From NCBI GenBank assembly GCA_016840035.1, contig JAEOTC010000060.1, forward strand, positions 1 through 28,746: DNA of 28,746 nt, written 5' to 3'. Both the position numbers and the translations under genes were made by a program. This document shows, piece by piece, positions 4,096-16,366 of the stretch. This DNA is from Candidatus Hodarchaeota archaeon. GTDB taxonomy: Archaea; Asgardarchaeota; Heimdallarchaeia; Hodarchaeales; Hodarchaeaceae. The stretch's first letter is position 1, and each line of letters opens with the position of its first letter. The notes under the pieces were generated by a model. The model saw nothing but the letters and a program-made list of their open reading frames with translations, was not told the DNA's origin and searched no databases.

Positions 4096-4173
4096 TAGTC
4101 TTTTTCTTGATTTCAGATATTTAAGTTTCATGCAGATTCCATAGTGAAACCAATAATTCTTGGTGAAAAAATA

Positions 4174-5190
4174 ATGGCAAAAGCTGAAACAAAAAAAGAA
4201 GATGCTGTTGTTGAGGACATAATTCCTGAAAAAGGAAAGAAAACAAAAAAGAAAGGCAAAAAAGAACAGAATTTCCTTGATACTGTCTCTGGAATAGGTC
4301 CCACAACACGAAAACGATTAGAAGAAGCTGGTTTTGGTAGTAAAGAAGCTATTGCTCTAGCTACACGCTCGCAACTTTCCGATATTTCAGGAATCGCTGA
4401 AAAAACAGCAAATGTTCTAATTCGTGAAGCCCGTTCACAATTTGATCTTGGATTGAAACCAGGATCTCACTATGCAAAATTAGGAGAAACTCGTCAATAT
4501 TTAACAACCTCTTCTCAGGCATTCGATGAGCTACTTGGAGGAGGATTTGAAACGGGTTCTATTACAGAAATTGCAGGGGAAAATGGATGTGGTAAAACCC
4601 AAATTTCTCATCAATTAGCAGTAAATTGTGTCAAAAACGGGAAAGATGTTGTATGGATTGATACTGAAGGAACTTTTCGATTTACTAGAATTTCTCAAAT
4701 GGCTAAAGCGCTAAATCTTGACACTGACGAAATTTTGTCACATATTACAGTCGGTAGAGCATTCAATAGTGAACACCAGATGGCTCTTACAGAGGAAGCA
4801 TTAACAATGGTTCCTAACGTAGGATTAATCATTGTTGACTCTTTGATGGCACATTTTAGATCAGAATTCGCTGGAAGAAGTACATTAGCTGAACGGCAGC
4901 AATTGATTGGAAAATATCTAGCATTCATCTCTAAACAATCAGAGATCATGAATTGTGTGGCGGTTGTGACAAATCAAGTCTCTGCAAAACCAGACGCTAT
5001 GTTCTTCGGAGACCCGAATAAACCTATTGGTGGTAATGTTGTCGGACATACAGTTACTACACGATTGATGATCCGGAAAGGTAAAGATGTTAAACGTACA
5101 GCTACACTTACTAAGAATCCTGAACTTCCAGACGGAAAAATCGAATTCTCAATTGATACTGACGGAATTCGTGACTATTCTGGAAAGTAA
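4174..5190 (+). CDS. radA: RadA/Rad51-family recombinase (atypical variant or paralogue)
   Basis: N-terminal HhH (VSGIGPTTRKRLEEAGF), Walker A GENGCGKT, IDTEGTF, Walker B LIIVDS, L1 FRSEFAGRSTLAERQQ, L2 TNQV..DPNKPIGGNVVGH. ATG 4174 is preferred over GTG 4144 because GGTGA lies at 4162-4166. Confidence 0.92.
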   Translation: MAKAETKKEDAVVEDIIPEKGKKTKKKGKKEQNFLDTVSGIGPTTRKRLEEAGFGSKEAIALATRSQLSDISGIAEKTANVLIREARSQFDLGLKPGSHYAKLGETRQYLTTSSQAFDELLGGGFETGSITEIAGENGCGKTQISHQLAVNCVKNGKDVVWIDTEGTFRFTRISQMAKALNLDTDEILSHITVGRAFNSEHQMALTEEALTMVPNVGLIIVDSLMAHFRSEFAGRSTLAERQQLIGKYLAFISKQSEIMNCVAVVTNQVSAKPDAMFFGDPNKPIGGNVVGHTVTTRLMIRKGKDVKRTATLTKNPELPDGKIEFSIDTDGIRDYSGK

Positions 5191-5204
5191 CTTCCCTTTT
5201 TTTT
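5191..5204 (+). terminator. Oligo-T terminator-like tract after radA
   Basis: CTTCCCTTTTTTTT directly after the TAA stop, typical of archaeal oligo-U termination signals. Confidence 0.55.
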
Positions 5205-5300
5205 GCTTGGAGTTGAATTGGAACGCTTTCAACGCGGGTAGGTACAAAAATTCTTGAGGATAAGACCACACTACTTCAGGTTGAACACCCTCCAACCGAT

Positions 5301-7817
5301 TTGCATGAATTATATGCACCCAATGGAATCTTGGTCTCTTATTTTGCAATTCAACCCATTCATGATTTAGAGAACACTTCTAGGAATTTATTCCGTGTAA
5401 CGAGTCAACCTGGAGTTCAAATCCTTCGACAAACATTTTCAGCAATTCCGCGTAAGTCGAAGACTTACTCCAAGCGTGATATTTCTTATACAGGACTTTC
5501 ATTGATAGTGCGTGTATATTTTCAATTCGCTGTTCGGACAGAATCGACCTTTCCAACAGTTTTGCGGCATGTTAGGAAGGAATTCTTAAAACGACGGACT
5601 TTAACTTATACTATTCTTTCTGCTGCAGGATTTAAGGTCACGATTATCAAAGGAGATCAAATATTTAAGTTACATTTTCGTAATGACAAAATAAAAGAAG
5701 GAATATCGATTTTTCCCTTTCAGGCTGGATCCGAATCGGAATACCTTGACAGATTTCTTCGTCTAGAACGGGTACCATCTCGTTATATTCAGGATTTTGC
5801 TGTACCCGACCTACCTGTGACACATAGGGTTGGCCATCGAATTGATGATCCTACAGTTCCTGTAGGATTTGGTGACCTTTCATCTGGTTCAGTTCTGATG
5901 TGTGGTTCGGATAAGAATGAATTGATTTCCATTTTTCAGAATCTAATCAATTCATTTGCTGTCACTAATAATAAGAAGGGGATCTTTGTCATTGATACAC
6001 ACAATGAGTTTAATGGCTTAATTCGTCATCTTCAATCACAAACATCGAGTAAACAGGGATTCAATCTGCATTTGTTTCAATTGGGCACAAATATGTTTAT
6101 AAATCTCTGTGATGTCATTATCCCCCCCTCTCCCAGTGGTAAGAGACAAGAATCAAAGGCAATTGAGGCATGGAGAGCACATCTCGTGAGTAATATTCTT
6201 TTAAGCTCATTACCAACTTCAGATTATTTTTCCTCGCGATTCGCTGTTCCCCTAGAAACCCAAATTAGGAATGCTGCAAAAGGAAGAACTTCTTTCACTC
6301 TTGAGGATGTAAAGACTACTTTCGGAAATCTCGAAGAAGAAGAGTTAGAGTCCAGCATTGGTTCTACTGATGGAGTTTTCGCAGATCTAATGTCTATTGA
6401 ACACCTTAATGGAATTTTAGACCAGTTTAAGGCATTTAAAGAAGTAAATTATTCCGCCTTTTTTGGACACCTCAGTAATCTCCTTTATCGTGACGATTCG
6501 ATTACAATTTTCCAATTTGGCGCACAGCCTCCCATGATCAAAAGAGCAGTTGTAGCATTTCTGTTACAATATTTAGGGAATTTAGCTGACAGAGGATTCG
6601 TATTCTTTCCTCATGCTGATGAGTTTTTAAGTAGAAGGACATTTTACGGAAGAATTGAGGCTGGAATTCCCACAGTATTAATTGACGCGTGTAATTCCAT
6701 TGCACAAAATAATGTATTGATCTTAGGTAGTCAAAGCGTACAAGCTCTCGCATTGAAAGTCAATTTATTCGAACAAATTAAAGATCAAGTATATCTACGT
6801 TTGGTTAATGCACAGGATAGAGAACTCATAATCACTCAACATCAACTGAAAGTTCAGAAATCAACTAAACTCCCAATGTTTGAGAAACAAGTACTTGGTA
6901 TTCGGGAAGGGGAAGGTCTGCTCTTTCGTGGAGATACATCCTTAAGCACTGCTTTTCATTTCAAAACGGATTCCACAATTATACCAGTGGATTTACATCC
7001 AATTAAGGTCACAGAAACTAAAATGAGGGGATCTAAAACCTTTGGATTAGTCCCTACAAAATTTGCTCAATTAATGAAGATTCTGAAGATTCTTGCAGCT
7101 CAACCCCTTAGTAATGATACAATCCTTGACGAATTAGAGATTAATGATAGCGATGAGCGATTACTTACCCAGATGTCGGAATTTGGTTTATGTAAGGTGA
7201 AGGAAGAGAATGCTTCTCGAACCTGGGAAATTACCGTGAAGGGCTTACAATATCAAGCGGATCAACATACGTTAATGGAAAATTTGCCCTCTACTCCAAG
7301 TTTTGAAGAAATTAACCTAATAAGGAATAAAATTACTACTTCGGAAAAGTTCTTTGATAGAAGTGTCTCCAATCAAAAATCTAAGGAAGAAAATGCTAAA
7401 ATTAAGGATTTAGTTGGACAAATGCTAAGTTATTTGTTTACACTCACTGGAAATATACCATGGATTCGCTATGCTGAGTATACGGATTTGAAAGAGATAA
7501 CAGGTATTGAAGGACAAGATTTCAGGCAATTATATGCTCTAGCATATGAAATATGTCAGCATATATTAAATGATATAAAGAAGTTTCGCGAGAAAAATAA
7601 GGTCGCTCCACTAATTCTTGAATCAACCGCTATTTCAGATACAGGAAAACTGGATGATTTTTTGCCTGATGACCGATATGTCACTTTACAGAAGATAAGT
7701 AAGAGCTTAAACCTTAAGAGATACCCTGATAATGGGATTCTTGATATTCATTTCAAGTTTCTAAAAAAGGGAAAAAACCTCATAGATGAGCTAAAGGAAA
7801 ACCCCGATGGAAATTAG
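5301..7817 (+). CDS. Degenerate HerA/VirB4-like P-loop protein with C-terminal winged-helix domain (predicted ATPase-dead; true start may be near 5217/5218)
   Basis: HerA-like motif order: SVLMCGSDKNEL (Walker A position, no GKS/T), IFVIDTHNEF (cf. DPHGEY), FVFFPHADEF (Walker B position, cf. IIIDEAH), LILGSQS (cf. hhhasQ), YLRLVNAQDRELI, IREGEGLL. The segment LMKILKILAAQPLS...GLCKV..RTWEITVKG is wHTH-like. Confidence 0.65.
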   Translation: MHELYAPNGILVSYFAIQPIHDLENTSRNLFRVTSQPGVQILRQTFSAIPRKSKTYSKRDISYTGLSLIVRVYFQFAVRTESTFPTVLRHVRKEFLKRRTLTYTILSAAGFKVTIIKGDQIFKLHFRNDKIKEGISIFPFQAGSESEYLDRFLRLERVPSRYIQDFAVPDLPVTHRVGHRIDDPTVPVGFGDLSSGSVLMCGSDKNELISIFQNLINSFAVTNNKKGIFVIDTHNEFNGLIRHLQSQTSSKQGFNLHLFQLGTNMFINLCDVIIPPSPSGKRQESKAIEAWRAHLVSNILLSSLPTSDYFSSRFAVPLETQIRNAAKGRTSFTLEDVKTTFGNLEEEELESSIGSTDGVFADLMSIEHLNGILDQFKAFKEVNYSAFFGHLSNLLYRDDSITIFQFGAQPPMIKRAVVAFLLQYLGNLADRGFVFFPHADEFLSRRTFYGRIEAGIPTVLIDACNSIAQNNVLILGSQSVQALALKVNLFEQIKDQVYLRLVNAQDRELIITQHQLKVQKSTKLPMFEKQVLGIREGEGLLFRGDTSLSTAFHFKTDSTIIPVDLHPIKVTETKMRGSKTFGLVPTKFAQLMKILKILAAQPLSNDTILDELEINDSDERLLTQMSEFGLCKVKEENASRTWEITVKGLQYQADQHTLMENLPSTPSFEEINLIRNKITTSEKFFDRSVSNQKSKEENAKIKDLVGQMLSYLFTLTGNIPWIRYAEYTDLKEITGIEGQDFRQLYALAYEICQHILNDIKKFREKNKVAPLILESTAISDTGKLDDFLPDDRYVTLQKISKSLNLKRYPDNGILDIHFKFLKKGKNLIDELKENPDGN

Positions 7818-9546
7818 TTTACCCCCAAAAATAGAACTGTTTCCCCATGAGGAATTACGCGCGTATCAGGCGCGATTCATTCGGTTTGTGGAAAAAAATC
7901 CACGTGTGATAATCCATGCTCCGGTCGGATTTGGAAAGACAGTGATGGCTCTAGTTAGTACTCTCCCGTCGGTGAAAACTCAACAATTTCAACTTTTTAT
8001 TTTTGTTCGAACAAAAGCGCAAATATTCCATGTATTCCTCGATGAGATCCGAAAAATTGCGAATACAGATAGATACGGGTATTTAACGGCTCTACCATTA
8101 ATCCAGAAGTCTGATCTGTGTATTAGAGCAGATCTTCCACATTTTTACAAAGGAATTTGTGGAAAAATTCGATGTGAACACTTAGAAAAAGCCCGTTCTA
8201 TTCCCGAGGAAGATTTTCCAACCATAGTTGAACAAGTCCCCATTACTACTCATGAAGGAGAGATTAAACTTGAATCCTTCAAAGATATTCTTCAAGAATT
8301 TGGGTGTCCTTATTATATTATCCGACGTTGTATACCATATGCAAATATTGTGGTCACTACACAAACTTATCTAAGAAACAAAATCCTCCAATCTTTACTA
8401 TCTACTCTCCTCCACAGAAGTACATTTGCTAATAAAATTTGTATTATCGATGAGGGCCATAATTTTTCTGCGGAAATTGAATCAGAAATTTCTTTAGATG
8501 ATATCTATAAAGCACGAGATATTATTCCGCTTAAGATCTTTGATAGATTAGAATATTTAATCCATAATCGAAAAGGTAGAGTTGATCGCCCCCAAAACCT
8601 GACCTCAGACTCAATAGATGCCTATCTCGACCATATATCAAATCTATCTTCTTGGGAACAAACAAATCTTCTCATAATCAAAGACTTTCTTAATAGTAGA
8701 GGAGAACTCTGGATTTCGGAACTTGAAAAACTAATACAACTCAACCCTTTTCCCCAAGGTATCTTTAAATTCGTTGATAACAATTTTAAGAATATCATCC
8801 TAATGTCTGGGACCTTTCGACCAATTTCGTCATATAAGACCCTTTATGGAATAAGATATCCAGGGATGCAAATCCCATCAGATTTTCAATATGGTCTTAA
8901 TGGGATTCTATATCATCGACGATTCAGTACAAAATATCGAGAACGTACTCCACAAACCTTTCAAGCAATGGCTTCAGTTATAAAACGTCTTCACCAATAT
9001 AATCCCTTTCACACGATCGTTTTTACTCCCTCACATGATTTAAAACAGAAACTTCTTGTCCACATGTCCTTTCCAAACGTTTATATTGAACAACCCAATG
9101 AAAGACCATTTTTCATTGATGAATTGCAAAATAAAACACATGAGATAATATTTGGGGTGTTAGGAGGAAAATTGTCAGAGGGAATCGAGATCCTTCATCC
9201 CTCTACTAAACGAAGCCTTCTAACATTAATTATCATTGCAGGAGTGCCATATACTAAACCAGATTCCACGAACCGTTTGATTAAAAGCCTTTATACAAAA
9301 CGATGGGGGAAACTAATGGCAGATCATCTTACTCTTCTACCCGTGACCAGAGTAATGACACAAGCGATAGGGAGAGGAATTCGATCAGAAACTGATTTTG
9401 CGGCAAGTTTGATTTTAGATTATCGTGCAGTAACACTAAGAACCATGCTTCCCCGATCAACAATTTTTCGTGATATTAATGATTGTTATAATGTGTTTAA
9501 TAATTTCTTTACTAAAATGAAAAGAAATTCTAAAATCAAATTCTAA
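7807..9546 (+). CDS. xpd: XPD/Rad3/DinG-family Fe-S SF2 DNA helicase
   Basis: Q motif RAYQ, motif I HAPVGFGKT, Ia RTKAQ, four Cys in the Fe-S domain (KSDLC, GICG, IRCE, GCPYY), II DEGHN, III MSGT, V GGKLSEGI, VI QAIGRGIRSETD. Overlaps the upstream gene by 11 nt. Confidence 0.88.
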   Translation: MEISLPPKIELFPHEELRAYQARFIRFVEKNPRVIIHAPVGFGKTVMALVSTLPSVKTQQFQLFIFVRTKAQIFHVFLDEIRKIANTDRYGYLTALPLIQKSDLCIRADLPHFYKGICGKIRCEHLEKARSIPEEDFPTIVEQVPITTHEGEIKLESFKDILQEFGCPYYIIRRCIPYANIVVTTQTYLRNKILQSLLSTLLHRSTFANKICIIDEGHNFSAEIESEISLDDIYKARDIIPLKIFDRLEYLIHNRKGRVDRPQNLTSDSIDAYLDHISNLSSWEQTNLLIIKDFLNSRGELWISELEKLIQLNPFPQGIFKFVDNNFKNIILMSGTFRPISSYKTLYGIRYPGMQIPSDFQYGLNGILYHRRFSTKYRERTPQTFQAMASVIKRLHQYNPFHTIVFTPSHDLKQKLLVHMSFPNVYIEQPNERPFFIDELQNKTHEIIFGVLGGKLSEGIEILHPSTKRSLLTLIIIAGVPYTKPDSTNRLIKSLYTKRWGKLMADHLTLLPVTRVMTQAIGRGIRSETDFAASLILDYRAVTLRTMLPRSTIFRDINDCYNVFNNFFTKMKRNSKIKF

Positions 9547-10997
9547 TTAATACCATTTCCTAAATTTTTTAAGTGAAAAAATCGTGCTTCTTCACTTGTT
9601 TGTTTTGTTATTAAGACAATTCTTGGTGCTGGCACTGATAGGTGATTCAATTTTTCAAAAATGTCTGCATTCACATCATAGACGATTATAATACTCGCTA
9701 AGTTCGCAACAACATCGTTCACCGTATTTGTGATACACACATGAATTTTCTTCCCACTAAAACCAAAAAGTTCCTTTTCTAACTGAAGACGGGTGAGCGA
9801 AGAAACAGGTTGTTTGATATGAGTAGTTGAAACTCCTTTATCCCTTAATCGACTCTCAAGAAATTCCGCATTCTTCCGAATATTTGTGATTAATGAAATA
9901 CTATCATGATAATCTTCTATTAGTTTAAGAACCTGATTAAACTTCGGATGATCCAGATTAGGGAAAAGTTCGATATATTCTTGAAGTTTCCGAATTATAG
10001 GGTTTCTCAAGAACTCAACCAATGCCTTTCTTCCTATGATATAGGTTTTATCTTTAAGACGGACCCGTAAGTCTTCGAAATACCTTAGAAGAGCAGGAAA
10101 TCCTTGTGAAATCAACACTCGTTGTATATTCATTATACGCTGTAAATTAGCAGTTTTTACCAAAAGTTCCTTCCTTTCTTCATTCAATAAACTGTTGTGA
10201 ATGGCAACAATATCTTGAGATGTGCTCCTAACTGTGACTCCAAATCCTAAACCTTCCAATTCTTTGAGTCTATTCCTTTTCATGTGATTAAGAATGTCTA
10301 GAACGAAATAATACTCTTTGGGCAAAGGAAGTGAGTAATGTTGAATATTCGCTCTTTCTCGTCTACTACTTCCATCAATATTGATTATGTCTAATAATTC
10401 AAGATTATGACATGCTTGTTCGAGCTTGATCACATTTCTTTCTCTCGTAAGTCCTACAACTTGTATTGGATCTAAATTCTGAATAATATATCTCAGTGAA
10501 GACGAGGAGGCTCCCATCTCTGCATAATCTATTATTATCAATGAGAAATGAGTTTTATCAAAAAAATTTTGCTTGTAATCATTTTTCACAGTTTTTGGAG
10601 TTGAAAGAATAATACTAAAACGATTATAATCCGTTTTTCGCGCTTGGGGGAGAATTTGTCCATTATGGATTGTAAAAACCTGATCTAGATTATCTTGGAT
10701 GCAGGATTTAAAGATATCCTGAATCTGTCGCTTGGTTAAAATTAAAACTCGTGGAATAGAATCCCGCGATTTTTCTCTTGAAATAAAATAACTGATCAAC
10801 AAAGAAAGGATCCTGAAAAGCTTCTCTTCTATCCGATATTGAAGTAAGCAATTATTTTTCAGAATCCTTTCCAAACTAATTTGTTCATCCAAAGAGGGGG
10901 TGAATTTAAGTTTATGCGAATTTTCTTTGTTGATTACAGATGAACTCAAACTAAATCTATCCAGAATTTTACAAACAGCTGAATTATCCTTCAGCAT
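9543..10997 (-). CDS. Hef/FANCM-like SF2 pseudohelicase (catalytic motifs lost, no nuclease domain)
   Basis: Collinear with Hef: NGQILPQARKTDY..IILSTPKTVKND...FSLIIIDYAEM (cf. TPQ..ND, DEAH), VVGLT, helical insertion, HPKFNQVLKLI, ITNIRKNAEFL, IIIVYD, LITKQTSEEARF. Walker A is replaced by NCLLQYRIEEKL and motif VI QRxGRxGR is absent. Confidence 0.75.
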   Translation of the reverse strand: MLKDNSAVCKILDRFSLSSSVINKENSHKLKFTPSLDEQISLERILKNNCLLQYRIEEKLFRILSLLISYFISREKSRDSIPRVLILTKRQIQDIFKSCIQDNLDQVFTIHNGQILPQARKTDYNRFSIILSTPKTVKNDYKQNFFDKTHFSLIIIDYAEMGASSSSLRYIIQNLDPIQVVGLTRERNVIKLEQACHNLELLDIINIDGSSRRERANIQHYSLPLPKEYYFVLDILNHMKRNRLKELEGLGFGVTVRSTSQDIVAIHNSLLNEERKELLVKTANLQRIMNIQRVLISQGFPALLRYFEDLRVRLKDKTYIIGRKALVEFLRNPIIRKLQEYIELFPNLDHPKFNQVLKLIEDYHDSISLITNIRKNAEFLESRLRDKGVSTTHIKQPVSSLTRLQLEKELFGFSGKKIHVCITNTVNDVVANLASIIIVYDVNADIFEKLNHLSVPAPRIVLITKQTSEEARFFHLKNLGNGIN

Positions 10998-11223
10998 TTA
11001 TTTTTTCGTTTTTGGAATCTACCCAATTTCGATGCGCGCTACAAGAGATTACTTGTGAGTCTTTCACCACCAGTACTGAAGGAATTCGTCGATTCAACAG
11101 TAAAGAACAAATTCCTCCAATTCCCCAATTTGCAAATTCACATATTTGACATAAGGGACTATTAACGAAAATTTCATCTAGAAATGGTAGCCTGTGTGGT
11201 TGAATAATTGGTTGACTAGTCAC
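10984..11223 (-). CDS. Small Cys/His protein, putative metal-binding (79 aa)
   Basis: CQIC...GIC...SCSAH pattern; GAGGTGA upstream of the GTG start; overlaps the start of the Hef-like gene by 14 nt. Confidence 0.65.
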   Translation of the reverse strand: MTSQPIIQPHRLPFLDEIFVNSPLCQICEFANWGIGGICSLLLNRRIPSVLVVKDSQVISCSAHRNWVDSKNEKINAEG

Positions 11224-11346
11224 GTATGATTCACCTCTTGTAGAGACACTACATCTAGTAATGTCAAATCAACCTTAAATATCTAAAATCCCTACTTCCC
11301 ATTATTTCAAGTATAAAAACCGAGTCATCAATCCATATTGAGATCA

Positions 11347-11850
11347 ATGTTATCTGAAAAACAACTAGTTGAACATCTAGATCTTTTTCTTAGAAATCAA
11401 TTATCCTTCCAGTCGTATATAGAGCTTCAAATTTCCAGTAGTGAAGATCTGAAAATCTCTGAAAAAATTGATCAAGAGCAGATCCGGATAGATTTAGCGG
11501 GAATAAGCCAGATTGATAGTTCAATTCACTTTTTTGAGGCAGAAACTCAGATTCATGTGAATCATCCTACCACCTATTTACAATTTTGCGATTATTGCTA
11601 TCTACTTTGTCCAAATGAACAGTTTGAACTTTTAAATGGAAATACTTTGGAAGAACAGCTTGTATGGGCTCGAGAAGTAGGAATTGGGATAATCTCCATC
11701 TCGCAGAAGGGGGAAATTCGCTCACGAATCAGTGCCGTTCAGCAACCCTTTGATCCTGATATTCGAGAAGTGATACTTACACATATGAACAAACGATATA
11801 AAATTCCATTTTCTACAATTCCCTTATGGAAACGTTCTCGAGCACTATGA
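11347..11850 (+). CDS. PD-(D/E)xK-fold nuclease-like protein, MmcB-like
   Basis: N-terminal SExxL helix, RIDL (catalytic Asp), IHFFEAET (ExE in place of ExK), YLQFCDYCYLLCP and GIGII, as in MmcB-like proteins. ATG 11347 (the ORF track starts at TTG 11338). Confidence 0.6.
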   Translation: MLSEKQLVEHLDLFLRNQLSFQSYIELQISSSEDLKISEKIDQEQIRIDLAGISQIDSSIHFFEAETQIHVNHPTTYLQFCDYCYLLCPNEQFELLNGNTLEEQLVWAREVGIGIISISQKGEIRSRISAVQQPFDPDIREVILTHMNKRYKIPFSTIPLWKRSRAL

Positions 11851-12397
11851 TACCAAATTGGAGTGAAAGATTATCCCTCGTCGAAAAAAATTAGTTGTTT
11901 GCTCTCCAACAGAGAGGAAGAAAGCAGAAATCTTTAATCGTATTGACTTACTTCTTGATGAAGATCGATTGGATCAGGCAATTAATGATCTAAGTTATTT
12001 ATTACGTACTGCACCAAGTTTAAATCAGGAAGTTAGATACAAGCTTGCTCTTACCTTTTTTCTGCGAAGTGAACCAGATAAAACATTAGATTTATTGGGA
12101 CCTCTCCTTCCTTCCATAAAAGAGGAGATCACTGACTTAGCAATGCAAGCCTTTCTTTCCTTGGATGATCAGAAAAAATCAATCCAAATACTCATCAACT
12201 CTTCCCTAAATAACCAAGAGAAATCAAAATTATATCAAAAGTACTTTATTGAAAGGGACTTGGTCCAACGGTTGCCCCCACCTCTCCCCCTGATAGATCT
12301 GTATTGTGTTAATTGTGGAGGCCATCTATTCTTCTACCATCAGCGAACCTACTGTTTGGTGTGTAATTCGGTCTATTTATCTAAATTTCTTGCCTAG
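11847..12397 (+). CDS. TPR-like helical protein with C-terminal Zn ribbon, interrupted by a -1 frameshift at about 11885-11891
   Basis: ATG 11847 overlaps the upstream TGA (ATGA) and reads MIPNWSERLSLVEKN* (TAG 11892). The -1 frame is open from 11867 and continues LVVCSPTERKKAEIFNRIDLLLDEDRLDQAINDL... to 12397. TPR-like DQAINDL..APSLNQEVRYKLALTFF; Zn ribbon CVNC-x12-CLVC. Confidence 0.65.
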
Positions 12398-13511
12398 AAG
12401 ACTCTTTAGTCTTTAGATTTTCTTCGTACTCTAGTTTGACAGAGTTCTCTCGCTGTTCCTCCTCAAGTTGAATTTTATCCACAACTCTTGCTAGTAATGT
12501 TTTTTCGTTCTCTTCTACTTCGGTTTCAAGGATCTCAAAAGATTCCTCATTCTCAAATCGTGAGTTCTGCACGATTGAACTTTCTTTTCCCGAATTAACT
12601 GTATTTGCTTCAGATATTCGGTCCTGAGAATTAGACTCAGTATCCAGATGAGATTCCATGAGTGTGTCAGCTTGTTCCACAATCTTATCTTCTGTCAGGA
12701 AGGTAGAAGTGCTGGAAGGCGAAATAGCAATTTTACTTTTCTCGGATTCTGAAAGAATTTCTCTTGAAATTGTAACCGGAGGAGTTCCCGTCAAATCAGA
12801 TAAAATACTCTCTTCAGTTTCAGAATGTTCTTCTTTAGAATCTTCATCACTTTCAATGGACACTGGATCATTACCAAAATCAGGGGGCCTCGTTTCATGT
12901 GAAGAATTATTTAAGTCCGACACAAGCCAATTTTGATTACCAAGAATATCGGGTCTGGAAATACTAGCTAAGACTAATCCTGGGATGATTTTTTGTAACG
13001 CTCCTTGAAAATCAAGACTCTGTTCTTTAATATCATAAAAGAAAGTCTCCAATTTTTCGGGGAATTTAACTAATGAAGGATAGTCTAGCTCCTGGAATTC
13101 AATGAACAGAGAGAATATCGTCTTGGAAGAATCTTCAAGAATTCGAAATTCAAATTCATGGAGGTTTTTGAGAACAGACAGTCGAAAATCTTCAGGTTTG
13201 GCTTCAATTGTGTAATCAAGTAAAACTGCTGTTGTATTATCAATGATAGAATATATAATTACAGCTTCGGGTAGAAGATCAGAATAAAAAATCTCATGTG
13301 TGGAGGGAATACTACTAAAATGAAAGGTTTCTAGTTGGATTCGTCTATCAGCATTATCCAAGATTGTACCTATAAAATAACCGATTCCTCCAAAGAGGAA
13401 AAGGAACAAAGTACTTGGACTTATAATTGTATATAACAAATACCCGAATAAAAATCCGATGATTGTTGTTAATATGTTCTTATTTATCATCGTTACTCGT
13501 TTCTTTTTCAA
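12381..13511 (-). CDS. Membrane-anchored hypothetical protein (2 N-terminal TM helices, globular middle, acidic low-complexity C-terminal half)
   Basis: Hydrophobic ILTTIIGFLFGYLLYTII and LFLFLFGGIGYFIGTIL; E/S/D-rich tail. Alternative start ATG 13490. Confidence 0.75.
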   Translation of the reverse strand: MKKKRVTMINKNILTTIIGFLFGYLLYTIISPSTLFLFLFGGIGYFIGTILDNADRRIQLETFHFSSIPSTHEIFYSDLLPEAVIIYSIIDNTTAVLLDYTIEAKPEDFRLSVLKNLHEFEFRILEDSSKTIFSLFIEFQELDYPSLVKFPEKLETFFYDIKEQSLDFQGALQKIIPGLVLASISRPDILGNQNWLVSDLNNSSHETRPPDFGNDPVSIESDEDSKEEHSETEESILSDLTGTPPVTISREILSESEKSKIAISPSSTSTFLTEDKIVEQADTLMESHLDTESNSQDRISEANTVNSGKESSIVQNSRFENEESFEILETEVEENEKTLLARVVDKIQLEEEQRENSVKLEYEENLKTKESSRQEI

Positions 13512-13603
13512 TGATCTGAATAGTTTGAATATCTCTACTATTCATCATTGTATTCTTACTTTACCTTATATATCCAAAATCCACTTGGTATCTTTTGATT
13601 AAT

Positions 13604-16366
13604 TCAGGACAGAAATCTTCTACATTCGTTATAATCTGTACCGAGAGGGATTTCTTTGTTTTGAAGAATGAAATCAAGAATTTGTCGTGCACCCTCTTTA
13701 TCCAAAAGTGTATTGTTCTTACTACAGCGTGGCAAAAAGCAGCACTTGGGACACCCGTCTTGACATTCACATTGTAGGATCACACTTGCTCGTGCAAAAA
13801 GCTCAGATAAATGGCTTATTAACATTTCACATATCCCATAACCAGTTGCTTGATCAAACAAAAGTATGTATCCTTGTGGGAGGAGAGCTATTCCGCCTAT
13901 TTCGTGAATCTGTCCACCAATATATGGCAAACTGGCATGAATAAGAACATGAACTAGAGTATGTAGTGAGTCACTAAATCTGCTTTGCTCAAGTGAAAAA
14001 TCATCTGCAGTTCTTGGTATTTGAAATAATATTCCTCGTGATTGTGATGAATAATATAATGGATCACGTAATTTCTTGACTTCTGTTCCGGAGGGAGTCT
14101 GAAGGGTATATCCAATAACTGATTGCACAATCTTTGTTGTCACTAATTTAACCTCTAAACCAAAAGTGGAACGTAATGATTCATGAACCTCTAATATCTG
14201 AGGTTTCATTTTCGAAATTGGGAATGTCTGTCCCCATGCATTCTTAGGCTTAACCAAATCAACCCACCCTCTAAATCCATTAAAACTATAACTAACCACT
14301 CTATATCTAATACCCCCAGCTAAATAGTAAGCTCCTGGATATAATTCGTACATCGCTAAAGGCATAGATCGTTTACCTATTTGTTTACCACCTCGAACTT
14401 TGATTACTATCTCGTGATTTGTTCCTCTGATTGAATATTTCTTGACCTTCTCAGATCCCTCTTTGGTCGGAATAAATATCGACTCGTCAAACTTCTGAAG
14501 ATAGTTCTTTCTCATAAGATCTTGAATCATATATTGATAAGCTGGAAACTCTTCATTTCCTAGAGGATAATCAAGAGCAGCAGCGAGTAATTGATGCCCA
14601 ACAACAGTAGGATTGGTAGGGTCGAAGAAGACATCCTCAACCTCCTGAAAATATCTCTCAGGGTTATTATAGTAATAATGACTGATTGGATCATCAGCAT
14701 TAAGATGAATTATTGCCACAGCGTCTTGTCCTTTCCTCCCGGCTCTACCAATCCTTTGAATAGCTCTATTAGCAGATATTGGTGGAGTAACCACAATTTC
14801 TAACTCCCCAATGTCAATTCCCAGCTCCAATGTCGGAGTAGCTATTAATAGGTCAATTCCTCCATCCCGGAACTGTGATTCTACCTCTTCACGAATTTTC
14901 CTTGGTAAACCGGCCCGATGGATTCCTATCCTATCCGAAGAACTCTTCAATCTTTGAAATAAGTACTCTGCACTGCGATGAGAATCTTGAAATGCAAGGA
15001 TTTTTCCATTTGGCTTAATTGAATTTAATAAACTGACTATACCATCGAATGTAGACATTCCATCAAATGGTGCTATCATCAAGAAGTGTAATCGTCCTCT
15101 TCGTCCATTTTTACATTCAATTACACTTATTGGTCGATTTAATAAGCGACTAGTAAACTGCTTTGGATTAGCCACCGTCGCTGATGCACTAATATATTGA
15201 ATCCTCTGGTCTAGGAGTCGTTCTAATCGTTTCAGAATAAAGTGCATATTACTTCCGAATGTTCCGGAAAATGTGTGGATTTCATCTAAAATCACGATCT
15301 TCAAATTTGCAATCAAATTCTGAAAGTATCCTGAATTTTTCCCAATTCCCAGATGGTAGTGAAGAATGTCAGGGTTTGTAATCAATATTTCAGGAGGGTC
15401 AGCGAATATCTTCTTTCTCCAATAGTGGGAAGTATCTCCATCAAATACCTTCACAGTCAGATTTAGTAATGAAGCAATCTCGGTAATTTTTCTGAGTTGA
15501 TCTTTGGCAAGGGCCTTTTGAGGATATATTATTAGCAATTGAACACCGTATCCCACAAAATCTTTGATTTTTAATAGTGCAGGTAGAAGAAAAGCTTCAG
15601 TTTTTCCATTTCCGGTCGGTGCTACAATACAAACATCTTGATTTGCTAAAATTTTTTTAAAAGATTCTTCTTGGAATTTATAAAGGCGTTTAATATTCCT
15701 AGTAGTCAAATACTGAATAATCTTATCATTATTTATAGAGTGGATAGATTTACCATATTCTCCACTCTGTTTATCAAAAAACCTGTAATCTACTATCTGG
15801 TGCTGTGCAAATTGAACAATACGTTTGATTACTGTGGGTAAGGCCGATTCTGACTCTGTAATTTTAAAATGCGAGTAAAACTCATTCAACGAAAAAATAC
15901 TTCTCGGGGCATGGTTTTGGATATGTGCAGCCTTTTGTAATCCAAGTGGTTTATCAACTGGTAATGATTTGAGCTTTCCCGCACTTTTTAACCTGGATTT
16001 CACAGATGAACTCAAAGTAACACCACCCCCCTTCAATGAATAATATTTTTGTAAGCAAAATTCACCTTTACTATTTTCTTTCAATTTAAAGTATAGTGAT
16101 GAGAGAGCTTTCCATGTCTCCTTATGCTGGTCGTCCTCTCGTAAAATTGTACCAAAAGTAAGTTTAGCCTCATTAAAATGTTTCATCTTAACGAAACGAG
16201 TAGCAATTGACGAAAGTAATGAAATTGATGGTTTAGGAGAAGTAGATGAAATAATAGCATTGAATGTGTCTACCAGATCATCAATATCGTGATTGAGTGC
16301 ATATTCTTCCATAGCTAAATTGTACCTGTTCCAGAGCGACTTTTCGCGTTCTTCAGTTACATTCAT
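13604..16366 (-). CDS. Hrq1/YprA(MrfA)-type DEAH helicase with C-terminal DUF1998 Zn domain and N-terminal TPR-like region
   Basis: LYKFQ, APTGNGKT, YPQKALAKDQ, DGDT, ITNPDILH, DEIH, SAT, TLELGIDIG, QRIGRAGR; C-terminal HTLVH..YILLFD..GYG and CECQDGCPKC. The N-terminal ~110 aa are TPR-like (HFNEAKLTFGTILREDDQHKETWKALSSLYF). Confidence 0.88.
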   Translation of the reverse strand: MNVTEEREKSLWNRYNLAMEEYALNHDIDDLVDTFNAIISSTSPKPSISLLSSIATRFVKMKHFNEAKLTFGTILREDDQHKETWKALSSLYFKLKENSKGEFCLQKYYSLKGGGVTLSSSVKSRLKSAGKLKSLPVDKPLGLQKAAHIQNHAPRSIFSLNEFYSHFKITESESALPTVIKRIVQFAQHQIVDYRFFDKQSGEYGKSIHSINNDKIIQYLTTRNIKRLYKFQEESFKKILANQDVCIVAPTGNGKTEAFLLPALLKIKDFVGYGVQLLIIYPQKALAKDQLRKITEIASLLNLTVKVFDGDTSHYWRKKIFADPPEILITNPDILHYHLGIGKNSGYFQNLIANLKIVILDEIHTFSGTFGSNMHFILKRLERLLDQRIQYISASATVANPKQFTSRLLNRPISVIECKNGRRGRLHFLMIAPFDGMSTFDGIVSLLNSIKPNGKILAFQDSHRSAEYLFQRLKSSSDRIGIHRAGLPRKIREEVESQFRDGGIDLLIATPTLELGIDIGELEIVVTPPISANRAIQRIGRAGRKGQDAVAIIHLNADDPISHYYYNNPERYFQEVEDVFFDPTNPTVVGHQLLAAALDYPLGNEEFPAYQYMIQDLMRKNYLQKFDESIFIPTKEGSEKVKKYSIRGTNHEIVIKVRGGKQIGKRSMPLAMYELYPGAYYLAGGIRYRVVSYSFNGFRGWVDLVKPKNAWGQTFPISKMKPQILEVHESLRSTFGLEVKLVTTKIVQSVIGYTLQTPSGTEVKKLRDPLYYSSQSRGILFQIPRTADDFSLEQSRFSDSLHTLVHVLIHASLPYIGGQIHEIGGIALLPQGYILLFDQATGYGICEMLISHLSELFARASVILQCECQDGCPKCCFLPRCSKNNTLLDKEGARQILDFILQNKEIPLGTDYNECRRFLS

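Follow-up and report, generated by a model that had tools for sequence, protein, structure and literature searches.

What is a helicase kept for once its motor is gone? This question is raised by a stretch of 28,746 nucleotides from a Candidatus Hodarchaeota archaeon (assembly GCA_016840035.1, contig JAEOTC010000060.1), hereafter the window, which has a GC content of about 36% and comes from a genome of 4.3 Mb that is 87% complete. Here, an intact gene for the helicase XPD converges on a gene whose product resembles the archaeal protein Hef, but whose catalytic motifs have all disappeared. We call this product dHef, for catalytically dead Hef paralogue. The two genes are so close that the stop codon of dHef (TAG, 9543-9545) overlaps that of XPD (TAA, 9544-9546). 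The answer we favor, to which we give a probability of about 0.6, is that dHef is a non-catalytic adaptor binding DNA junctions together with a microprotein with four cysteines (Cys4), as part of a repair module to which XPD and the product of a small neighboring gene, orf170, also belong.

Searches by sequence and by structure lead to the same relative. The NCBIfam profile NF010337 ("Hef nuclease") matches residues 91-392 of dHef over its positions 74-394, with an E value of 3.1e-22 and a score of 78.5 bits, which does not reach the curated cut-off of 610 bits. The Pfam scan gave a sub-threshold match to ResIII alone. The sole significant sequence match in the PDB is the helicase of Pyrococcus furiosus Hef (1wp9; phmmer E value of 6.5e-7), and the profile of the dHef family matches the same entry with an E value of 1.4e-14. 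The AF2 model of the protein (pLDDT of 91.3) has two RecA-like domains and a helical insert. Its best Foldseek matches are four chains of 1wp9 (E value of 1.7e-24, TM of 0.70), followed by the FANCM translocase (9el5, 6e-19), RIG-I-like receptors and Dicer (about 1e-16 to 1e-14), and XPF (9qec, 2.9e-14). VIA-align superposed the model on 1wp9 over 438 residues with a Z score of 28.4 and a root-mean-square deviation of 4.8, and gave weaker scores for FANCM (9el5, 21.9), for RIG-I, MDA5, and Dicer (about 19-20), and for the chains of XPF (18.3-18.8). A preliminary description, made from the letters of the window, had read the two RecA domains and insertion of Hef into this protein and had suggested comparing its fold with those of Hef, FANCM, and XPF. 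The layout is indeed retained, and the best structural match is Hef.

The loss of the motor is complete and shared by the whole family. We aligned 36 members of the dHef family with 59 canonical Hefs (95 sequences). In the window protein, motif I reads LQYRIEEKLFRIL opposite VVLPTGLGKTIIA of the canonical proteins, motif II reads IIIDYAEMGA opposite LIFDEAHRAV, motif III reads GLTRE opposite GLTASPG, and motif V reads CITNTVND opposite TSVGEEGLD, while the QRxGRxGR of motif VI is replaced by LNHLSV and a deletion of five residues. Across the family, PTGxGKT became Y-[RS]-x-E-E-x-L (motif I), PTKPL became T-KR (motif Ia), DEAH became [DNL]-[YQN]-A-E (motif II), TASPG became T-[RQ]-x (motif III), TSVGEEGLD became TN[TS]VN[DE] (motif V), and QRxGRxGR became LNxL with a five-residue deletion (motif VI). 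All six motifs are lost in 36 of 36 members. The preliminary description had already remarked on YRIEEKLF in place of Walker A, DYAE in place of DEAH, and the missing motif VI, all of which are seen in dHef.

Other parts of the protein have been kept. The residues common to the dHef family and the canonical Hefs are G113, R120, T133, P134, N139, D140, L225, P226, Q298, G299, H350, P351, and K352. They mark four elements: TG..P..R, TPxTxxND, the SQG of the insert, and the HPK with which the second RecA-like domain begins. The first two correspond, in superfamily 2 (SF2) helicases, to the nucleic-acid-contacting motifs Ib and Ic. In the window protein, the first RecA-like domain has lost motifs I, Ia, II, and III and kept G113..R120 and TPKTVKND, and the helical insert has conserved LP, NLQR, and SQGF. 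From these patterns, dHef is predicted to be unable to bind or hydrolyze ATP, even if the fold of Hef is kept. Because the motifs for ATP are precisely those that were lost, and the elements for nucleic acids are those that were retained, we infer that DNA binding has been maintained.

The family also evolves as functional proteins do. Its members are 37-73% identical, and 16 of its sequences share 58 invariant columns. Pairwise ratios of nonsynonymous to synonymous substitution rates (dN/dS) range from 0.06 to 0.10, with saturated dS and with dN between 0.13 and 0.26. These values indicate that the family is under strong purifying selection. The family profile found dHef, with an intact frame, in all 21 genomes of the GTDB family (Hodarchaeales) to which the window belongs, and it gave no match in 62 genomes of six other families of Heimdallarchaeia. 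The close protein relatives are labeled Candidatus Hodarchaeales or Heimdallarchaeota by NCBI and JGI.

The window protein ends 7 residues past the last helicase element and lacks an ERCC4 domain. It had been described as a stand-alone dead helicase, which is right for this protein and wrong for the original state of the family. Most members have 620-660 residues, with a C-terminal domain of about 130 residues behind a low-complexity linker. The core of this domain is modeled by AF2 with a pLDDT above 90, and its top Foldseek matches are the FANCM C terminus (4m6w), the Hef nuclease (1j24), XPF, Aeropyrum pernix XPF, MUS81-EME1, FAAP24, and ERCC1. A VIA search, which is independent of Foldseek, gave a Z score of 12.1 for 1j22 and for the central domain of ERCC1; twelve chains with the ERCC4 fold scored between 8.8 and 12.1, after which the scores fell to 6.8. 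At the level of sequence, nothing significant was found for ERCC4 in the Pfam scan of 10 members or in the profile search of the PDB, and comparisons with hhalign gave E values of 0.21 for one Hef and of 0.1-0.8 for four groups of Hef C termini, none of them significant. The nuclease motif GDxnERKxxxD is not conserved in the long forms, whose sole invariant acidic residue in this domain lies in a helix. We also found no Pfam match to HhH in the window protein or in eight relatives, whereas canonical Hefs and the paralogues that we call HefB (see below) do match HHH_5/HHH_2. On its modeled fold, and the fold comparison alone is decisive, the C-terminal domain is an ERCC4 pseudo-nuclease.

Long forms are scattered over the tree of the family, and the domain is present in the outgroup paralogues too; the long form is therefore ancestral. 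Hence, the ancestral dHef was dead in both its helicase and its nuclease domains. Short forms arose at least two times, once in the clade of the window (G000, which is the window's genome, G049, G052, G053, and G054) and once in G060/G061. The stand-alone state of the window protein is a secondary one, produced by the deletion of the pseudo-nuclease domain in its clade. No separate gene for the lost domain was found in the window's genome, which is 87% complete (best E value of 0.11).

This deletion has a counterpart in the canonical Hef. The copy in the window's genome (L003:1480-2901, contig C108, P0276) keeps DEAH, TATPG, EEG, and QRRGR, but it is helicase-only and ends before any nuclease domain. 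The only ERCC4 domain in this genome is that of a stand-alone XPF of 241 residues (L004:1573-2298, contig C11). Most genomes of the family have a Hef of about 755 residues that includes ERCC4 and an XPF of about 240 residues. The five genomes with the short dHef of the window's type are exactly the five whose Hef has 521-522 residues and no ERCC4, and in the other four of them, too, a short stand-alone XPF is the only ERCC4 nuclease. Since ERCC4 folds act as dimers, as in XPF-ERCC1, FANCM-FAAP24, MUS81-EME1, and archaeal XPF/Hef, the two losses agree with a pairing of the dHef pseudo-nuclease domain with the Hef nuclease domain. Three features are specific to the window: its dHef is truncated, the stops of dHef and XPD overlap, and the canonical Hef has lost its nuclease domain in parallel. 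The same genome also encodes a third, very divergent Hef-like helicase of 518 residues (L005:1453-3009, contig C227; 85 bits with NF010337). It lies on a very long tree branch, and, having GTGKT, DEAT, and QRRERARG, it is probably active.

Where does dHef come from? An exhaustive search with the family profile over 1.84 billion representatives gave 412 matches. The best ones beyond the family and its fragments are P0047 (E value of 1e-30) and P0048 (2e-28), followed by ordinary Hefs. Both have matches to DEAD, Helicase_C, and HhH, and none to ERCC4, and the cluster of P0048 is labeled Hodarchaeales. P0047 is an example of HefB, a second Hef paralogue present in other families of Heimdallarchaeia, together with P0279 and the copies of G001 (L068:6574-8946) and G069 (L071:1-2505). 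In the latter two genomes, the helicase motifs of HefB are intact, the nuclease region is degenerate (no GD...ERK and no Pfam match to ERCC4), and HhH is present. HefB of the family f7 reads PTGTGKT and GDY...EYK. An active-looking helicase followed by a degenerate ERCC4 and HhH is the layout of FANCM, here in an archaeon. In the window's family, genomes carry a single canonical Hef besides dHef, and HefB is absent.

We built maximum likelihood trees of archaeal sequences (LG+C20 PMSF, quick search, SH-aLRT support). The dHef family is monophyletic (100), with a very long stem (2.7-3.2), and it stands beside L071 and P0279 (91) within a clade of Hodarchaeales Hefs (99). When three long HefB rows were removed, the family still joined the Hodarchaeales Hefs (93), and neither the remaining long branch nor the outgroups. 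Long-branch attraction is therefore not retained as the cause of this placement, which held in quick SH-aLRT searches only. Hence, we read dHef as having arisen within Hodarchaeales from a Hef paralogue with a nuclease that had degenerated before.

The gene neighborhood suggests which proteins dHef may work with. We searched the window's proteins with tblastn in 20 family loci (1.5-kb flanks) and compared six 20-kb regions from distant members. In all six large regions, a pair formed by orf142 and orf170 faces the pair formed by orf79 and dHef, and NCBI locus tags agree with this gene order (e.g., JSW11_05290, 05300). The most constant partner of dHef is the overlapping Cys4 gene, orf79, which the preliminary description missed. 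Four cysteines of its product are invariant (C25, C28, C39, and C61), its GTG start follows a GGTGA at 7-8 nucleotides, and it overlaps the start of dHef by 14 nucleotides, which together make it the most likely physical partner of dHef. An Atlas search with orf79 gave no usable lead. In longer relatives of orf79, the C terminus extends into an acidic tail that holds a conserved aromatic residue (for example, ..FWE.. or ..LWNES..) and often finishes with (D)PG. Most of this tail is missing from the window's copy. From their sequence, such tails could be short partner-binding motifs.

On the other side of orf79, divergent from it, lies orf170, whose invariant residues include D52, E67, E69, H76, C84, C87, and C91. 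Its segment 11347-11850 had been put forward as a nuclease that dHef might recruit in trans. What holds of this proposal is the neighborhood. Homologues of orf170 also adjoin, or lie close to, active Hef paralogues of the families f3 and f7: in G001, one stands beside HefB and XPD, and in five of the six loci from f7, one is separated from HefB by about 3.5 kb. The link between Hef paralogues and orf170 is therefore older than the inactivation of the helicase. No search backs the nuclease identity. The gene has no Pfam or NCBIfam family match (beyond scattered weak Pfam matches of single members) and no match in the profile search of the PDB, the MmcB-like model PF06319 matches nothing in the window's genome, and the profile of orf170 retrieved only hypothetical proteins of Hodarchaeales. 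The leads towards a nuclease are an Atlas feature score of 0.87, which is below 0.92 and attached to no family, and the invariant D...ExE pattern.

The proximity of XPD, which the preliminary description had stressed, recurs in distant relatives. The gene is intact, with Walker A, DEGH, and four cysteines of the iron-sulfur type, and it adjoins dHef in at least 12 loci (a count limited by the 1.5-kb flanks) and in four of the six large regions. The wider block, 4144-16366, with the RadA-family gene, the 838-residue gene, XPD, dHef, orf79, orf170, orf142, orf376, and the MZB helicase (Table 1), recurs in rearranged form in distant members. It is an inherited neighborhood of repair genes and not a mobile island.

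Table 1. Positions of dHef, of its domains, and of the neighboring genes in the window
Feature	Position	Strand	Remarks
dHef, short form (helicase-like module only)	9543..10997	-	484 aa, single open frame
RecA-like domain 1	10368..10910	-	About residues 30-210, borders approximate; from model secondary structure, motif table, and conserved columns
Hef-type helical insertion domain	9963..10325	-	About residues 225-345; all-helical from H227 to H343 in the model; aligns to the insert of 1wp9
RecA-like domain 2	9558..9950	-	About residues 350-480; invariant HPK at its start; without motifs V and VI
orf79 (Cys4 microprotein), upstream of dHef	10984..11223	-	In 21 loci, a homologue immediately precedes dHef
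orf170	11338..11850	+	Relatives of 167-170 aa; found in 17 loci and 6/6 large regions
XPD/Rad3 helicase	7807..9546	+	579 aa; Pfam DEAD_2 and Helicase_C_2; TIGR00604 rad3
orf142, 3' of orf170	11969..12397	+	Relatives of 157-185 aa; found in 11 loci
orf376 and DEAD/Helicase_C/MZB helicase (MrfA/YprA/Hrq1-type)	12381..16366	-	Pfam; 5/6 large regions
RadA/Rad51-family gene and 838-aa gene, upstream of XPD	4144..7817	+	Pfam Rad51, E value of 2e-70; 2-3/6 large regions

Two further observations concern this block. In the stretch 11847-11970, the N-terminal segment conserved among relatives of orf142 (VCS-TE-KKAE-FN) is found in frame before the TTG start at 11969, and the preceding stop is not followed by any ATG, GTG, or TTG; a short frame with an ATG start (11847) runs alongside in another frame. 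As read from the sequence, this is compatible with a frameshift or with a non-canonical start. In a genome of the sister family (G070, L070:775-5949), one strand carries a gene like the 838-residue one, XPD, a gene of 518 residues, and a gene of 333 residues whose N-terminal half is homologous to orf170. The 518-residue gene occupies the position of dHef and was considered as its counterpart, but it has no similarity to the dHef family or to HefB and no match in the PDB.

How could such a protein function? If dHef is a junction-binding adaptor, it would use the conserved DNA-contact surface of Hef for passive binding to branched DNA or bubbles. It would form a complex with the co-translated Cys4 protein encoded by orf79, and this complex could mark or hold the junction for catalytic enzymes encoded nearby and elsewhere in the genome. 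The enzymes served may include XPD, the MrfA/Hrq1-type helicase, the stand-alone Hef helicase, and the short XPF nuclease. The pseudo-nuclease domain of the long forms is likely to form a pair with an ERCC4 domain that is catalytic, in the manner of ERCC1, FAAP24, and EME1, and this link would have been dropped in the window's lineage. A scaffold of this kind had been suggested before, and it is the most reasonable reading of the conservation that we observe. Several points weigh against it. Conservation and gene order are all that the proposed DNA binding, the complex with the product of orf79, and the link with XPD are drawn from. The XPD gene converges on dHef and is not co-transcribed with it, and it is not within reach in two of the six large regions. 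All carriers of dHef belong to one family, so the synteny is in part inherited instead of independently maintained. The co-loss with the Hef nuclease rests on a single lineage, since G060 and G061 lost the pseudo-nuclease domain and yet keep a full-length Hef. Finally, the input alignment of the AF2 model held canonical Hefs, and the Hef-likeness of the fold is thus partly built in; the sequence searches that link dHef to Hef do not depend on the model.

The same data can be read in other ways. A protein that kept the DNA-contact landmarks of Hef without its motor, and that in all carrier genomes occurs alongside an active Hef, might be a decoy that competes with Hef for forked DNA or for shared partners, restraining fork reversal or cleavage instead of recruiting enzymes. 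We consider this rather unlikely, because dedicated and conserved partners (orf79 and orf170) and the many invariant residues specific to the family suggest a function of its own. The fold could also be a pure docking platform for XPD, the Cys4 protein, the product of orf170, or PCNA, with no contact with DNA. There are precedents for this, since the helicase-like domain of XPF docks ERCC1, SLX4, and XPA, and the titles of the PDB entries 9qec, 9qed, and 9qee describe complexes of this module with XPA and SLX4; the fixed order with small partner genes would agree with it as well. It seems rather unlikely as well, given that dHef keeps the residues of motifs Ib/Ic, which would be unexpected if contact with DNA had been lost.

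The remaining explanations are of lower probability than these. The preliminary description had left open whether dHef is a relative or a convergent analogue of the XPF N terminus. A true kinship, with a shared ancestral inactivation, is attractive in a host from Hodarchaeales, given that XPF too has a dead Hef-like module and that its fold matches are significant. We find it very unlikely, and descent of dHef from an ancestor of XPF likewise unlikely, as judged with archaeal sequences. The narrow distribution of dHef in one family of the class, its position nested among Hodarchaeales Hefs on a very long stem, and its ancestrally dead nuclease without HhH2, when XPF has an active nuclease and HhH2, point to a convergent analogue whose helicase was inactivated independently; Hef and FANCM are also closer to dHef in fold than XPF is. 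Nothing marks dHef as the ancestor of the XPF module. A cryptic NTPase with a non-canonical site might account for the invariance of E160 and of the SSS-LR segment beside the former motif II, but this is hardly credible for a protein without the P-loop lysine and threonine, the arginine finger (deleted with motif VI), and motifs III and V. As for a decaying pseudogene or a recent loss of function, which the disappearance of every catalytic motif might evoke, it can for practical purposes be dismissed: the frame is intact in all 21 genomes despite their divergence, no family member retains intact motifs, and the same substitutions recur family-wide. The low dN/dS and this conservation lead us to reject recent decay.

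These results have consequences for annotation and for the study of repair. Genes of the dHef family should not be named "ERCC4-related helicase" or "FANCM" as though their products were active. A literature search brought up neither a description of the family nor any article about inactive Hef paralogues from Asgard archaea. In eukaryotes, the ancestral Hef-like helicase-nuclease was divided into catalytic and non-catalytic members, as in XPF-ERCC1, FANCM-FAAP24, and MUS81-EME1. Hodarchaeales is the order often placed closest to eukaryotes. The dHef family suggests that archaea of this order independently made pseudo-enzymes from Hef, and that strong selection maintains them beside XPD, together with invariable small partners. 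It could serve as a prokaryotic model, open to experiment, for the part played by a dead helicase module in structure-specific repair. In Hodarchaeales, the Hef proteins form a graded series: canonical Hef, active helicase with pseudo-nuclease and HhH, doubly dead protein, dead helicase alone, and short stand-alone XPF. By analogy, one may speculate that this series works as heteromeric pairs of catalytic and non-catalytic members, like the eukaryotic pairs just named; dHef, the Cys4 protein, and the product of orf170 would then be an adaptor that recognizes junctions in excision repair or crosslink repair dependent on XPD. We think this broader idea unlikely as it stands. If true, it would reveal an archaeal root of the eukaryotic division of labor, or a striking parallel reinvention of it.

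Several known systems can be compared with dHef. With the archaeal Hef of P. furiosus (1wp9; nuclease 1j22/1j24) it shares the order of RecA1, insert, and RecA2, and the elements TG..P..R, TPxTxxND, SQG, and HPK, and in its long relatives the collinearity with Hef extends to the ERCC4 fold. Unlike Hef, it has no ATPase motifs, no nuclease domain (a degenerate one in the relatives), and no HhH2. Its nearest relatives in profile searches and trees are the HefB proteins, whose nuclease is already degenerate and whose copy in G001 is followed by the homologue of orf170 and by XPD; in contrast to dHef, they keep PTGxGKT, DE(A/V)H, TA(S/T)PG, EEG, QRxGR, and HhH, and look like active helicases. XPF/Rad1 (6sxa, 9qec, and 9pcp) is, like dHef, built on an SF2 module derived from Hef that has no ATPase function, and the repair pathway in which it acts also uses XPD. 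This module has been kept in XPF as a structural element that binds DNA and partners. However, the ERCC4 nuclease of XPF is active and is accompanied by HhH2, and XPF forms pairs with ERCC1, whereas the nuclease of the long dHef forms is dead. FANCM/Mph1 gives the second-best fold match of dHef (9el5), and its degenerate ERCC4 and HhH are those of the HefB layout. Its motor is active, and the succession of degenerate ERCC4 and HhH2 is absent from dHef, the long relatives having the degenerate ERCC4 only. Finally, the C-terminal domain of the long forms matches the pseudo-nuclease folds of FANCM-FAAP24, ERCC1, EME1/EME2, and Zip2-Spo16 (Z scores of 9-12). The logic is the same in these systems, where the dead member serves as a partner or targeting subunit, but ERCC1, FAAP24, and EME1 do so without the helicase module that dHef has kept.

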